A DNA stretch of 64,000 bases from a virus: positions 2,861 through 66,860 of IMG/VR virus record IMGVR_UViG_3300032164_000010; one strand, given 5' to 3'. The notes under the pieces were generated by a model, which was not told the DNA's origin, did not search any database, and saw nothing but the letters and a program-made list of their open reading frames with translations. Shown piece after piece: positions 51-62,509 of the stretch; position 1 is the first letter of the stretch; each line of letters begins with the position of its first letter. Position numbers and translations under genes: made by a program.

Positions 51-69
51 CTTGCGCCCCTTGAGCGGG
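51..69 (+). repeat. 19-bp direct repeat copy 1 (CTTGCGCCCCTTGAGCGGG)
   Basis: Identical to 1021-1039. Confidence 0.85.
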
Positions 70-75
70 TATAAG

Positions 76-195
76 TGGAGTAGTAGAGCGTTGGTGTTTC
101 AGCACTGGCGTTCTGCGAGCCCTTCGTGCTTTGTGCCCAGACATGCACCTCCCAGGGAGCAACGTCCAAGCCCAGCACGAAGGGCTCTTTCTTAG
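76..195 (+). ncRNA. putative small structured RNA (two hairpins)
   Basis: Follows GGTATAAG (68-75). Hairpin 85-114 with G-U pairs; perfect 14-bp stem GAGCCCTTCGTGCT (117-130)/AGCACGAAGGGCTC (174-187) with inner helices; ends in TTTCTTAGC. No credible ORF. Confidence 0.5.
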
Positions 196-440
196 CCAGT
201 AGCCACTTTGCGCCGGCGTTGGCGTGTAAGTGGCAGCTTCCAGCGCTGGATGATGGAGATCTCGGTGCTGTCCCAGCATGTTCCGCACATCGGGCAGTAG
301 ACAGCAACCAAGTCTCCCTTCGGGGTGGGGATGATGAGCTCGTACTTCGTGCCTTCAGCGTTCGGAACGCAGAACACTCGATGGCCAAGCTCGGGAAGTA
401 GTGCCTCACAGGGGGACTTGTCGCAGTACTTGGCCATCAA
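192..440 (-). CDS. small Cys-containing (possible Zn-ribbon) hypothetical protein
   Basis: 82-aa ORF with CPMCGTC; overlaps the stop of the upstream gene (coupled). Confidence 0.55.
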   Translation of the reverse strand: MMAKYCDKSPCEALLPELGHRVFCVPNAEGTKYELIIPTPKGDLVAVYCPMCGTCWDSTEISIIQRWKLPLTRQRRRKVATG

Positions 441-736
441 AGCCTCCTTTGGCGTACATCTCGGCCCTTCAAGTAGCTGGTGACGTACTCATCATCCAAG
501 CCCTGCGCAGATAGAAGCTGGATGGCCTGGTCTTCTGGGAAGATGTCCATCAGCAGGTCTTTGTACGGAACAGTCTCCACTTCGTCCGCGGCGTTGAGGT
601 ACAGGATGACTATTCCTCGTTCCAGGAGGGTATCTGCTACAGCTTGGCCCAGAACAACGGCCGCTCTGGTCGTGCGCAGGTGACTCAGATGCAGAGGAAC
701 ATCGTTCTGTGGGGGTGTTATCTCGGGGTTTGCCAT
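437..736 (-). CDS. hypothetical protein
   Basis: 99-aa ORF, GAGG upstream, protein-like composition. Confidence 0.65.
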   Translation of the reverse strand: MANPEITPPQNDVPLHLSHLRTTRAAVVLGQAVADTLLERGIVILYLNAADEVETVPYKDLLMDIFPEDQAIQLLSAQGLDDEYVTSYLKGRDVRQRRL

Positions 737-1020
737 GTTGAGGCCTCTATCTCGATGTTTGTCTGACCAAAGTGATACAAAACGCCCCTACACGCCAAAA
801 CGACCTCGATACAAGTCTCTCGTAGCTCCGAAAGAGAGGTTTGGGGGGCTGTTTTGGATGGGTTATTGCCAGGCTTCTGTCTTGATGGCAGAAGTGCCAT
901 AGCTGTGGCGATCTGGGCTTCGAGGGCTAGTCCGAGGTCTAGCTCACGGTCTAACAGACGAGGGCTATCTGGTAGCTGTCTAGGTAGTAGGGGAGAGCTC
1001 CCAGTCCCTCCTTCCCCACC

Positions 1021-1039
1021 CTTGCGCCCCTTGAGCGGG
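1021..1039 (+). repeat. 19-bp direct repeat copy 2 (CTTGCGCCCCTTGAGCGGG)
   Basis: Identical to 51-69. Confidence 0.85.
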
Positions 1040-59491: not shown

Positions 59492-59540
59492 GAAACAGGG
59501 AGGGCGGCTATCGAGGCCGTTCCTCCCTGTTTCGTTTAGC
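59487..59540. terminator. bidirectional hairpin with a TTAGC end motif on each strand
   Basis: GAAACAGGGAGGGCGGC...GCCGTTCCTCCCTGTTTC; + strand continues GTTTAGC, - strand continues TTAGC. Confidence 0.85.
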
Positions 59541-59698
59541 TAGTCCCCGTACCCGAGGTAGCGGGTCTTCTTCGGAGCGTCCTCCGGGTCGATCCTCTCC
59601 TTCTGCCTACGCAGCCTGTGCACCCGCCTCTTCTCGAACTGCTTGGCCGCACACGACTGCCAGTGCCTGCACAACTTCTGCGGTCTGCCGTAGCTCAT
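59540..59698 (-). CDS. small Arg-rich protein
   Basis: GGAGG RBS; MSYGRPQK...RYLGYGD. Confidence 0.55.
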   Translation of the reverse strand: MSYGRPQKLCRHWQSCAAKQFEKRRVHRLRRQKERIDPEDAPKKTRYLGYGD

Positions 59699-59761
59699 GG
59701 TCACCTCCGCGCTGGTTAGCGACGAATTGGCATGAGCCACCTCCTTTCCTTTGCCGGTTCA

Positions 59762-62446
59762 TCATGAGCAGCCAGTTGTGGTTCCACACGCCACACAGAC
59801 GTAGCACGAGCCCGACCTCTTCGTCAGGTTACCGCACGAGACGCAGGGACCGCCGTCGTAGCTGAGTCCGACAGGCTTCTTCGGGTCGATGGGTGTGAGG
59901 TTCTCCTGCGGCTGGAGGAAGGTGAGCTCGAGCCAGCGGCTGATGTAGTCCCCGATCGACCATGTCATGCGGATGTTCTCATGGTCAGTCAGGCCATAAG
60001 GCTCGAAGCGGGTGTCCTTCATCTTGTCGATCATCGTCGGCAGTGGCACACCGTGTTGCAGCCCGATGGAGAAGGCTGTTGCCCACATGTCCGCGAAGCC
60101 ATTGAGCGTGGAACCCTGCTTGGCCATACGGACGAAAATCTCAGCGAGCGAGCCATCAGGGTACAGCCCAGTAGTGATGTAGCCCTCCTGCCCCTGGATG
60201 GTGAACTTGTGTGTCTCTCCTTTGCGCGTGTTGGGAAGACGCTTCCGCTCCCCCCACTTGAGCCTCTCCTTGCTGTTGGCAGTCTCCCCAGCCTGTAGGT
60301 TGGTGGGCTGAGAGAGCTTGCACCCATCACGGAAGACCGCGATGCACTTCACCCCCTTCTTCCAGGCACGCATGTAGAGCTTGTCGACATCTGCCAGAGA
60401 CGCATCTGCGGGGACATTGACGGTCTTGGAGATGCCGCCCGACAGGAAGGGCTGTATGGCCGCCATCATGTCGATGTGAGCCTCGGGGGTCAGGGCGTGT
60501 GTTCCCAGAGCCTCGGCGAAGATGGGGCCATGCTTCTCCTCGTCGAAGTCGGCGGCGGAGTGGATGTCTCCCGTCTGCCGCAGGTGCTCGAGAATGCGTG
60601 CGATGTTAGCCTGCTCGTAACCCAGGTTCTCTAGTGCCTGGGGGATGATGCGATTCGGTAGAGTGAGCAGACCTCCGCCCACGATCTTCTTGTAGGTGAC
60701 ACAGCCGAGCATGGGCTCTCCGCTTGTGGTGTCACACGCCATGAGGAACGAGATGGTGCCTGTGGGCGCCAGGAGGCTGACCTGAGCGTTCCGGTACCCG
60801 GAGCTCTCCCCCAGGTGGTACGCCTCAGCCCACAGCTCGAGCGCAGTCTTGATGATGGACCTCCGCTCCTGGTCGAAGCGGTAGTTGAAGCCTTCACTGG
60901 CGTTCCAGTGCCGGCGGATGACCCGTAGCATAGACTCCCGGTTCTTCTGGAACTCCGGGAAGGGGCCCAGCTTCCGTGCCAGCACAGCGGACTGTCGGTA
61001 GCTGGCAGCAGTCATGAGAGAAGCGATGGCTCCTCCGACCGCTCGCCCATGCTCTGAGTTGTAGGGGATACCCCAGAAGACCAGCAGCGAACCGAAGTTG
61101 GAGAAACCGATGCCCAGAGTTCGGAACTTGCGGCTGTTCTCCTTGATGAGCTCCGTGGGGTAGCTGGAAGCGTCGACGATGATCTCCTTCGCCGTGATCG
61201 CTATCTCGCAGGCATGGATGAATGCCTCTGTGTTGAACTTCGGTCCCTGTGCGAAGCGCATGAGGTTGAGGGACCCGAGGTTGCACGAAGTGTCATCGAG
61301 GAACAGGTACTCGGCGCAGGGGTTGCTGGCGTTGATGCGGCCGCTCTCTGGACAGGTGTGCCACCCGTTGATGGTGGAATCGAACTGAAGACCTGGGTCT
61401 CCACACAGGTGAGCCGACCGTACGACGGCATCGAAGATCTTGCGGGCCTGGTACGTCTTGAAGAGCTTGCGCTCCTTCACCGTGAAGGTGTCCCAGGTGA
61501 GGTCGTCCTCGACAGCTTTCATGAAGGAGTCGGGTGCCCTCATGCTGTTGTTGGCGTTCTGATACCCCACACGGTCGTAGACGTTCCCGGGCTTGTTCCA
61601 CTCCGCGGAGTAGCGACCTGACTCCCACAAGGCACGGGCTTGCTCTTCTGCGTCGGCCTTGCAGGTGATGAAGCCCGGCTTGCCACTGTACTGCTCTAGG
61701 ATGTCTGGGTGGTCTGCGTTGAGGATGCACATCTTCGCTGCCCTACGCGTGGTCCCACCAGACTTGGTGACTCCCGCGAAGGCATCGAGTCCCGCCATGA
61801 AAGAGACGGGTCCCGAAGAATAGCCGCCCCTGGAGAGGCGTTCGTGTGATGACCGCAGGTTGGAGAAATTGGTTCCAGAGCCAGAACCACCCTTGAAGAC
61901 CATGACCTCACGGGTGGCGAGGTCCATGATCGACGACATCGTGTCGGTGACAGACTGGATGAAGCAGGCCCCACACTGAGGCTGTGCTTCCTTGGACGCG
62001 CCCACGTTGAACCACACCGGAGAGTTGAAGGCGTACATGCCGTTGACGAACATGTAGATGAGCTCGTCCAAGAAGACACGAGCCTGCTCACCAGACTCGA
62101 GCACACCCTGCTCGATGCCTTGACGCGTGATCCAGTCAGCTACACGAGCGAACATCTGCTTCGCCGAGGTTTCCTTCACTCCGTTCACCACACGGAAGTA
62201 CTTCTCGGCCACCACGTTCACCGTGGTCTCCGGCCACCAGTTAGGGACTTCCACCCCGTCCATGCGGAAGACTTCCCTGCCGTCTCCCCCAACGATGACG
62301 GCATCCTTCTTGACCCACTCCACCGAGGACCACGGGTCCTTACCTTCGGCGGTGAACACCCGGTTGAAGGTAAGTTTCGTGTGGTCAACTGTTGTGGCTG
62401 GGGTAGCCTGGTCTACCCCAGCCAGTACATCATTCGTTGAGTTCAT
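59762..62446 (-). CDS. nrdJ: class II (B12-dependent) ribonucleotide reductase with TSCPD domain and C-terminal Zn ribbon
   Basis: FNSPVWFN, ACFI, GGTTRRAA, NPCAEY, CNLGSLN, APTGTIS, ISKTVN, FRDGCK; C-terminal CVSC...CVAC. Confidence 0.95.
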   Translation of the reverse strand: MNSTNDVLAGVDQATPATTVDHTKLTFNRVFTAEGKDPWSSVEWVKKDAVIVGGDGREVFRMDGVEVPNWWPETTVNVVAEKYFRVVNGVKETSAKQMFARVADWITRQGIEQGVLESGEQARVFLDELIYMFVNGMYAFNSPVWFNVGASKEAQPQCGACFIQSVTDTMSSIMDLATREVMVFKGGSGSGTNFSNLRSSHERLSRGGYSSGPVSFMAGLDAFAGVTKSGGTTRRAAKMCILNADHPDILEQYSGKPGFITCKADAEEQARALWESGRYSAEWNKPGNVYDRVGYQNANNSMRAPDSFMKAVEDDLTWDTFTVKERKLFKTYQARKIFDAVVRSAHLCGDPGLQFDSTINGWHTCPESGRINASNPCAEYLFLDDTSCNLGSLNLMRFAQGPKFNTEAFIHACEIAITAKEIIVDASSYPTELIKENSRKFRTLGIGFSNFGSLLVFWGIPYNSEHGRAVGGAIASLMTAASYRQSAVLARKLGPFPEFQKNRESMLRVIRRHWNASEGFNYRFDQERRSIIKTALELWAEAYHLGESSGYRNAQVSLLAPTGTISFLMACDTTSGEPMLGCVTYKKIVGGGLLTLPNRIIPQALENLGYEQANIARILEHLRQTGDIHSAADFDEEKHGPIFAEALGTHALTPEAHIDMMAAIQPFLSGGISKTVNVPADASLADVDKLYMRAWKKGVKCIAVFRDGCKLSQPTNLQAGETANSKERLKWGERKRLPNTRKGETHKFTIQGQEGYITTGLYPDGSLAEIFVRMAKQGSTLNGFADMWATAFSIGLQHGVPLPTMIDKMKDTRFEPYGLTDHENIRMTWSIGDYISRWLELTFLQPQENLTPIDPKKPVGLSYDGGPCVSCGNLTKRSGSCYVCVACGTTTGCS

Positions 62447-62501
62447 GCGACCTCCCCATAGAGAAGCGTGGCCGCGGTACTAACGGCCACCGCGTTCTCT
62501 G

Positions 62502-62509
62502 CTTATCGC
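62502..62509 (-). promoter_or_regulatory. GCGATAAG motif heading the RNR unit
   Basis: Same motif as the plus-strand non-structural units, here on the minus strand with the RNR; followed by a leader hairpin (62461-62499). Confidence 0.65.

Follow-up and report, generated by a model that had tools for sequence, protein, structure and literature searches.

GnnATAAG is a short motif that recurs ahead of genes in a 64,000-nucleotide stretch of viral DNA, here called the window, which comprises bases 2861-66860 of the 66,860-base virus record IMGVR_UViG_3300032164_000010 (G000; 32% complete by CheckV). On the sequence evidence, the motif is well supported as a promoter element because it is enriched in intergenic DNA, shares its orientation with the gene that follows, is accompanied by a -35-like box, is conserved at syntenic places in related phages, and ranks at the top of the hexamers found upstream of genes. 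Comparison of genomes indicates that GnnATAAG is a promoter class conserved across a family of phages with genomes of ~200 kb, which encode a bacterial-type RNA polymerase and a sigma factor of their own. We propose, with moderate confidence, that it serves as the -10-type element of promoters specific to the phage and that its most likely reader is a phage sigma factor acting on the phage beta-beta' RNA polymerase.

The original prediction named 12 places in the window at which ATAAG, with a G three bases upstream, heads a gene unit or an RNA on the same strand. All 12 copies are confirmed, 11 on the + strand and one (62502-62506) on the - strand, and the G is present in 12 of 12. An open reading frame (ORF) follows on the same strand at 11 of the sites and a structured RNA follows the site at 71; the expected flip of strand is also seen, as the copy ahead of the ribonucleotide reductase gene lies on the - strand. 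Motif enrichment, which had been suggested as a check, is absent relative to shuffled sequence for bare ATAAG (21 copies in the window against 24.85 expected, with 87 of 100 shuffles reaching 21) and present for the full form: GNNATAAG occurs 15 times against 7.21 expected (standard deviation 2.4), a count that 0 of 100 dinucleotide-preserving shuffles reach. Nine of these 15 copies are intergenic, in the 7.3% of the record that an approximate gene map leaves between genes (p 1.9e-7), and the control GAATANNG, consisting of the same letters backwards, has one of three copies between genes. GNNATAAG is absent from the record's 2.9 kb beyond the window. Full matches inside genes number three rather than the two reported earlier (59996 +, 46691 - and the overlooked 33298 +), and the earlier list of bare ATAAG copies lacks those at 9604, 10641, 54930 and 55962, all on the - strand.

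With the A of ATAAG numbered as -11, the window element consists of a GCAA box at about -34 to -31, G at -14, G/C/T at -12, A-T-A-A from -11 to -8, and G at -7. The invariance of A-T-A-A in the 12 window sites follows from the search definition. The earlier statement that no -35 element is shared does not hold, as a TGCAAG-like box (at least five of six letters) lies 17-18 nucleotides upstream of the (G/C/T)ATAAG hexamer at seven of the 12 sites, compared with 0.98% of record positions (p 6e-12) and with 0 of 9 among the remaining ATAAG copies. GCAA also occupies the -35 place in the sequence logos of four related genomes, G001, G006, G007 and G008. The -7 position is G rather than T in 12 of 12 window sites and likewise in the sites of G001, G006, G007 and the cultured relative, Salmonella phage Arash; it is variable in G008. 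At -12, G or C is found in 11 of the 12 window sites, and -14 is always G; by eye, the flanks carry T at -15 in none of the 12 and in roughly half of the Arash sites. Beyond the motif, the next two positions are A in 34 and 26 of 55 sites, and there is a weak T-G/T-A preference 6-8 nucleotides past the final G.

Judged by these letters, the layout is sigma-70-like, with a -35 box at the canonical distance, A at -11, and an extended -10-like G at -14. In promoters read by bacterial primary sigma factors, T at -7 is the best-conserved and near-universal position. The G at -7 therefore speaks against a primary sigma factor as the reader and not against the sigma-70 family. The promoter-rich stretch 1-12600 of the window has no excess of the canonical sigma-70 consensus, with three matches against 2.5 expected.

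The relatives make the case for the motif much stronger than the window does by itself, and conservation is evident at the level of individual gene junctions. A megablast search of window positions 1-12000 against a phage collection gave no match. Using the polymerase as the query, five viral contigs are recovered, including G001, a complete genome of 210,330 bp with terminal repeats and 63% polymerase identity. The record is collinear with 86.8-140.9 kb of G001, with 37 of 70 proteins matching, and the motif lies at the same six junctions in both: ahead of the ribonucleotide reductase gene, the MoxR-like ATPase gene and a gene that, from a sequence motif, we tentatively take to encode RNase HII; divergent from the polymerase gene; after the VWA gene; and after the gene at 34980-35675. 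In G001, 42 of 53 copies of GNNATAAG are intergenic, in 9.6% of the DNA (p 4e-33), and ~22 copies form a one-strand array between small genes at 137-164 kb, with a spacing of ~1 kb. With a weight matrix built from 43 G001 sites alone, 17 matches score at least 8, and they include 11 of the 12 window sites.

Intergenic bias extends to G006 (32 of 59 copies, p 1e-14) and G007 (21 of 32, p 1.5e-13), and the controls of G001, G006 and G007 are not significant. When the hexamers ahead of genes are ranked without a preselected motif, the top place is held by GATAAG in G000, G001 and G007, by TATAAG in G006, and by GTGATA/TGATAA in the distant, AT-rich G008, in which TGCAA-N16-GTGATAA followed by ATAG occurs at 22 intergenic sites. 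A co-oriented gene start lies within 200 nucleotides downstream of 7 of 9, 36 of 42, 18 of 32, 17 of 21 and 24 of 29 intergenic sites in the sets counted, compared with 1, 10, 9, 8 and 5 when the strand is flipped. The motif is found across phages of 41-61% G+C and in one with a Salmonella host.

That phage, Arash (180.8 kb), is the one record recovered from the phage collection with the sigma factor of G001 as the query; its gp10, annotated as a sigma factor, has 29% identity, and Arash also encodes beta and beta' genes. Its genome contains 31 copies of GGTATAAG, 24 of which are intergenic (p 8e-17), compared with 0 of 5 for the backward control GAATATGG. The copies are nearly all on one strand and have the extended consensus GGTATAAGtAAaGTGTAa. 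Mass spectrometry of purified Arash particles identified beta as the most detected protein and also found beta' and the sigma factor (PMC10585845). The authors name early transcription as one possibility, and the word 'promoter' is absent from the paper (PMC10585845). Distant polymerase homologues, at 24-29% identity, are present in other cultured phages, namely Vibrio phages D69, D181 and D148, Cobetia phage Carin-5 and Yersinia phage vB_Yru_GN1; a tblastn search of these Vibrio, Cobetia and Yersinia phages with the sigma factor gave no match at E ≤0.001.

The sigma factor of the family is best represented by a 272-amino-acid protein of G001, which matches Pfam Sigma70_r3 at 29.2 bits (cut-off 25.3) and has weak matches to regions 2 and 4 in the right order. 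Among solved structures, it is closest to RpoS, SigA and RpoD, aligned over residues 64-270 at E 1e-7. Among 613 candidates, 164 homologues are found at E ≤0.001, several of them on contigs of 180-211 kb, and an alignment of homologues reveals strong conservation of the predicted DNA-reading helices. A contig search with the single sigma sequence returned only its own contig; an alignment of 21 homologues recovered three more viral contigs, G006 (199 kb), G007 (191 kb) and G008 (133 kb), and all three also carry the large polymerase. A bacterial-type polymerase and a divergent sigma-70-family protein thus occur together in five of five near-complete relatives (G001, G006, G007, G008 and Arash).

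In its surroundings (G001 20883-51616; Arash gp8-gp14), the sigma gene has as neighbors tail or baseplate genes and genes whose products are very large (1,124, 1,124 and 2,259 amino acids) and belong to no known family, and not regulatory genes. A Pfam search of 10 large proteins around the G001 sigma gene gave one Baseplate_J match only, so that the label of a virion block is weak and relies mainly on the annotation of Arash.

A structural model of the complex addresses whether the two proteins fit together. The G001 sigma factor, supplied as a 21-row alignment, and residues 1000-1460 of the G001 polymerase reach a score of 0.69, a mark attained by 58 of 80 solved complexes and by 2 of 110 mismatched pairs; the best of three controls scores 0.00. 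The runs share at least 43% of contacts, and the partner has a predicted local distance difference test (pLDDT) score of at least 66. In the modelled interface, polymerase residues 1227-1261, the predicted clamp helices, contact sigma residues 56-103, which belong to region 2. The model supports, and does not show, binding of the phage sigma factor to the phage polymerase. The pass may reflect likeness alone, as sigma/beta' complexes have been solved many times over.

The polymerase gene of the window encodes a fused beta-beta' enzyme with Pfam matches to RNA_pol_Rpb2_6 (2e-57), Rpb1_5 (1.3e-23) and Rpb1_2 (3.1e-22) and also to Rpb1 domains 1 and 3. An insertion of ~505 amino acids (residues ~1428-1935) follows directly after the catalytic NADFDGD and is absent from the G001 polymerase (2,089 amino acids). 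The insertion carries homing-endonuclease domains (LAGLIDADG_3, 7e-07) and is intein-like, except that its C-terminal junction lacks the usual His-Asn.

The polymerase gene itself is preceded by a promoter of a second class. In G000, G001, G006 and G007, TTGACx (once TTGGCG)-N17/18-TAnnnT lies 87-126 nucleotides ahead of the polymerase start, and the same arrangement is found ahead of the gene in G003 and G004. In each case, this canonical promoter and a GnnATAAG promoter point away from each other, and the two upstream zones overlap; in the window, the zone upstream of the divergent promoter overlaps the -35 of the opposite-strand polymerase promoter, as it does in G001, G006, G007, G003 and G004. 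Similar canonical promoters precede other polymerase-strand blocks of G001, including the block with the sigma gene. The pattern TTGnnn-N16-18-TAnnnT has a modest intergenic enrichment (10 of 47 copies in G001, compared with 9.6% intergenic DNA, and 1 of 7 in G000), and the evidence for canonical promoters consists only of the copies at conserved places ahead of the polymerase gene. The presence of two promoter types in the same genomes suggests that GnnATAAG is not simply a signal for the host primary sigma factor. The 87-126-nucleotide leader that separates the polymerase start from its canonical promoter (window 58020-58143, - strand) contains stretches conserved across its equivalents in G001, G006 and G007, and may be a regulatory 5' untranslated region.

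In its full form, the proposed promoter would read (T)GCAA(G), 17-18 nucleotides, G(-14) n (G/C/T)(-12) A(-11) T A A G(-7), with transcription starting about 7 nucleotides on, often at a T-G step. The reader would be the divergent sigma-70-family factor encoded by the relatives, acting on the phage's own beta-beta' polymerase. This phage holoenzyme would transcribe a non-virion set consisting of small ORFs, the MoxR/VWA genes, the ribonucleotide reductase gene, the presumed RNase HII gene and one or more small RNAs. Other promoters, among them the host-type TTGACx-N17/18-TAnnnT, would serve the genes on the virion side, that of the polymerase included. A phage sigma factor is favored as the reader because the element departs from the primary-sigma consensus at -7 and -12, because it persists over that range of base composition and in a phage of Salmonella, and because a sigma gene is present in all five near-complete relatives. 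The phage core enzyme is favored as the partner on account of the joint detection in Arash virions and the one complex model. The original prediction regarded the motif as the recognition or start element of a phage RNA polymerase or phage sigma factor; its role as a promoter recognition element agrees with the sequence comparisons, a role as a start element appears unlikely, and the case for a phage reader is indirect.

Several observations weigh against this proposal. The 66.9-kb record contains no sigma gene (no match to Sigma70_r2 and one weak match to r4), and the link to a sigma factor is through the relatives. The -35-like box is partial, as it accompanies the seven window sites mentioned above, and exact GCAA is found at 10 of 42 intergenic sites in G001, 16 of 33 in G006, 5 of 22 in G007 and 0 of 30 in Arash. 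Enrichment is modest in the AT-richer relatives, with 8 of 27 copies intergenic in G003 and 3 of 11 in G004, both shorter contigs, and 12 of 85 in G008, where the exact 8-mer hardly exceeds a control that is itself borderline. The gene maps, generated by a rough caller from codon statistics, are approximate, and the intergenic fractions are approximate likewise. In G003, G006 and Arash, the element takes the form (T)GGTATAAG, which is one base, at -7, removed from an extended -10 host promoter, so that use by host sigma-70 is possible in these three genomes. Arash also has canonical sigma-70-like promoters among its motif-strand genes, which bears on the order of events in infection. Finally, we infer the identity of the sigma factor, the core enzyme, the start site and the timing from sequence.

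A more far-reaching version of the proposal, which we advance only tentatively, is that the whole holoenzyme, consisting of fused or paired beta/beta' subunits and a private sigma factor, is packed in the virion and injected to read GCAA-N17-GnnATAAG, and that the virion genes, including those for the polymerase and sigma factor, are left to host-type TTGACx-N17-TAnnnT promoters. The result would be an N4-like inverted cascade made from cellular-type parts. In such a scheme, G at -7 would hide the promoters from the host sigma factor, and the overlapping back-to-back promoters ahead of the polymerase gene would act as a switch between two enzymes. Phage N4 leaves its late genes to the host sigma-70 polymerase, and its own enzyme is a single-subunit polymerase that uses hairpin promoters. 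A possible likeness to the N4 and phiKZ-type systems is that the motif precedes closely packed runs of small non-virion genes, with a promoter and a terminator for every gene; unlike N4, the family has a multisubunit beta-beta' enzyme and a -10-type motif. The polymerase subunits and sigma factor in Arash virions (PMC10585845) point to a possible shared strategy with virion polymerases of the N4/phiKZ type. The phiKZ and AR9 enzymes are described as split, lacking a sigma homologue and using other motifs (PMC13282480, PMC7824862).

The most serious rival, which we consider unlikely, retains the promoter class and the phage sigma factor and assigns them to the host core enzyme, with the phage enzyme using other signals. 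Such capture is the known norm for phage sigma factors: the middle promoters of SPO1 depend on gp28 and its late promoters on gp33/34, and the T4 late promoter TATAAATA depends on gp55. The present system would resemble both in having a phage sigma-70-family protein, a phage-specific -10 element (in SPO1 also a -35 element) that is unused by the host primary sigma factor, and many copies heading units. The phage sigma factor described here also retains regions 2, 3 and 4 like cellular sigma factors. SPO1 and T4 encode no polymerase and rely on sigma factors that take over the host core, whereas this family encodes a beta-beta' enzyme, found together with the sigma factor in every near-complete relative. 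From T4 it differs further: the late promoter has no -35 element and gp55 lacks regions 3 and 4, whereas the present element has a -35-like box and another consensus, and the G001 sigma factor has region 3 above the Pfam cut-off and a weak region 4. The docking of sigma region 2 on the predicted clamp helices (0.69 versus 0.00) argues against the host core, subject to the likeness to solved complexes noted above. According to a comparative jumbo-phage study and a review published in 2026, jumbo phages with a polymerase have no sigma homologues and those with a sigma factor have no polymerase (PMC7824862, PMC13282480), a division that favors the host core, while the proteins of both, sigma factor and polymerase, were detected in Arash virions (PMC10585845).

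It is very unlikely that a host sigma factor reads the motif, whether as an unusual primary-sigma consensus of the host or as a tolerated extended -10 promoter. The architecture invites the comparison: like the extended -10 element TGnTATAAT, the motif has G at -14, A at -11, T-A-A from -10 to -8 and an optional -35 box, here 17-18 nucleotides upstream, and the (T)GGTATAAG form is a 5/6 match to TATAAT, the -10 consensus of the Arash host. The motif differs from it in the invariant G at -7, found at every window site and in GGTATAAG of Arash, in the lack of a conserved T at -15 in the window, and in a -35 box of the GCAA type and not TTGACA. A host signal is also difficult to reconcile with canonical TTGACx-N17/18-TAnnnT promoters at conserved places in the same genomes and with a motif that persists across 41-61% G+C and in a Salmonella phage. 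To our knowledge, none of the enterobacterial alternative-sigma consensus sequences matches it.

A sigma-independent initiator, at or within which the phage polymerase would start, has a slimmer chance still. Baculovirus late transcription starts within TAAG and is carried out by a four-subunit viral enzyme without a sigma factor. The original prediction had drawn an analogy with the baculovirus (A/G/T)TAAG element, and the likeness is that of a short invariant TAAG core heading many viral genes. The analogy probably fails in mechanism, as the anatomy here is that of a -10-type element with a start expected ~7 nucleotides downstream; the -35 box, the fused beta-beta' enzyme and the sigma partner in relatives set the two systems apart, and there is no evolutionary link. 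The short core, the purines that follow it (A in 34 and 26 of 55 sites) and the use of short motifs near the start by non-canonical multisubunit phage polymerases (PMC7598289) are consistent with an initiator of the baculovirus or phiKZ type. They are outweighed by the canonically spaced -35-like box, the invariant G that precedes the hexamer by two bases, the second weak signal (T-G) ~6-8 nucleotides downstream, where a sigma-type start would fall, and a bona fide sigma-70-family gene in the family. The slightest probability belongs to a non-promoter role, as an operator, an RNA processing site or part of the preceding terminator signal: many copies come right after hairpin and T-tract terminators with a conserved TTTCTTAGC tail and a 19-nucleotide exact repeat lies beside two copies, yet the orientation is strictly tied to the downstream gene, copies also occur without an upstream terminator and at divergent junctions, the upstream box and spacing suit a promoter, and the motif lies on the non-transcribed side of the preceding terminator.

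If read by a phage sigma factor, GnnATAAG would belong to a known kind of element, the phage sigma-dependent promoter; what is unusual is the additional presence of a bacterial-type polymerase encoded by the family. With a cellular-type polymerase as well as a sigma-70-family factor, the family falls in neither of the two groups of large phages distinguished in the reviews, one with a split multisubunit polymerase that has no sigma factor and one with sigma factors that borrow the host enzyme (PMC7824862, PMC13282480); the motif adds a candidate promoter consensus as a third piece. In carrying cellular-type subunits on large environmental contigs, the family resembles the mReC phages, Caudovirales with a deeply branching multisubunit RNA polymerase, which are described as having cellular-type beta and beta' (PMC7481178); the window polymerase has strong Pfam matches to both. 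In the mReC paper, the words 'sigma' and 'promoter' have 0 occurrences each (PMC7481178). No description of GnnATAAG promoters or of the system was found in the literature searched, most subscription journals and supplements aside. The reading is directly testable because a cultured member, Arash, exists with its 31 copies of GGTATAAG. If correct, it would provide an orthogonal sigma/promoter pair with altered specificity at -7, a handle on how a sigma pocket is retuned from T to G, and a rule for annotating transcription units in widespread ~200-kb environmental phages.

Table 1. Promoters and associated features of the window (positions are those of the window; spacers in nucleotides, nt; ORF starts are counted from the final G of the motif).
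Feature	Position	Strand	Description
Promoter	46..75	+	TGCAAC (46-51), 18-nt spacer, GGTATAAG (68-75); heads putative small RNA
Putative ~110-nt structured RNA	82..196	+	Two strong hairpins; hairpin and TTTCTTAGC tail at end; ends inferred
Promoter	1056..1084	+	TGCAAG, 17-nt spacer, GAGATAAG; ORF start at 47 nt
Promoter	1854..1882	+	TGCAAG, 17-nt spacer, GGCATAAG; ORF start at 95 nt
Promoter	2475..2504	+	CGCAAG, 18-nt spacer, GTGATAAG; ORF start at 69 nt
Promoter	2699..2726	+	Weak box GGAAAG, GGGATAAG; hairpin and TTTAGC tail ahead; ORF start at 40 nt
Promoter	3488..3516	+	CGCAAG, 17-nt spacer, GGGATAAG; heads MoxR-like AAA ATPase gene; G001 syntenic copy 140972 (-)
Terminator-like hairpin	8432-8447		Tail TTCTCTTAGG; directly ahead of promoter 8458..8486
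Promoter	8458..8486	+	TGGAAG, 17-nt spacer, GGCATAAG; G001 syntenic copy 137079 (-)
Promoter	10419..10447	+	Weak upstream box, GGCATAAG; ORF start at 15 nt
Promoter	35648..35676	+	TGCAAA, 17-nt spacer, GAGATAAG; top score with G001-only matrix; G001 syntenic copy 111182 (-)
Promoter	38378..38407	+	TGACAG, 18-nt spacer, GAGATAAG; heads presumed RNase HII gene; G001 syntenic copy 108086 (-)
Fused beta-beta' multisubunit RNA polymerase gene	50172..58055	-	2,620-amino-acid ORF; start codon uncertain (58019-58055)
Canonical sigma-A/sigma-70-type promoter	58114..58143	-	TTGACG, 18-nt spacer, TACCCT; upstream of polymerase gene
Promoter	58142..58169	+	Weak upstream box, GTGATAAG; divergent from RNA polymerase gene
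Promoter	62502..62530	-	GGCAAA box, GCGATAAG; heads class II ribonucleotide reductase gene (59762-62446); G001 syntenic copy 88862 (+)

At 11 of the 12 sites (Table 1), a GGAGG-type ribosome site, a start codon and a same-strand ORF of 73-894 codons follow 15-95 nucleotides past the final G. ATG, GTG or TTG triplets 2-6 nucleotides past several motifs were considered as leaderless starts and rejected, because the true starts lie further downstream behind GGAGG.

The promoter at 71 is the exception, with no ribosome site or ORF behind it and a terminator-like site at 169-186. The putative RNA behind this promoter (82-196) has a predicted minimum free energy of -58.7 kcal/mol (z -6.19), and 0 of 200 shuffles are as stable. 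It is convergent with, or antisense to, the - strand genes at 192-440 and 437-736, whose ORFs are conserved in G001, G006 and G007. In G007, a + strand motif (74914) likewise lies upstream of the orthologous - strand gene pair. A tRNA scan and an Rfam search at the gathering threshold gave no match anywhere in the window, which places the RNA in no curated family.

Terminator-like hairpins with the common tail TTTCTTAGC(T) are found in the window at 169-196, 8432-8457 and 12576-12600, and many occur in G001 and G006. The hexamers TTAGCT, TTTAGC and TAGCTA rank near the top for intergenic enrichment in G001, G006 and G007; some of these matches are tRNA D-loops. The TTTCTTAGC-tail terminator may be a termination signal specific to the motif-reading enzyme. 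An exact direct repeat of 19 nucleotides is present at window positions 51-69 and 1021-1039, with a weaker copy at 1276-1294; it falls within the spacer of one promoter and upstream of the -35 box of another, and may be an operator.

The weak Sigma70_r4 match in the window (E 1.2e-4) was rejected as a sigma factor, as the 277-amino-acid protein resembles an HNH nuclease with helix-turn-helix repeats. Encoded at 22671-23504 on the - strand, inside the structural block and without a match in G001, it combines repeated helix-turn-helix segments with an HNH-like C-terminus and is probably a mobile homing endonuclease.

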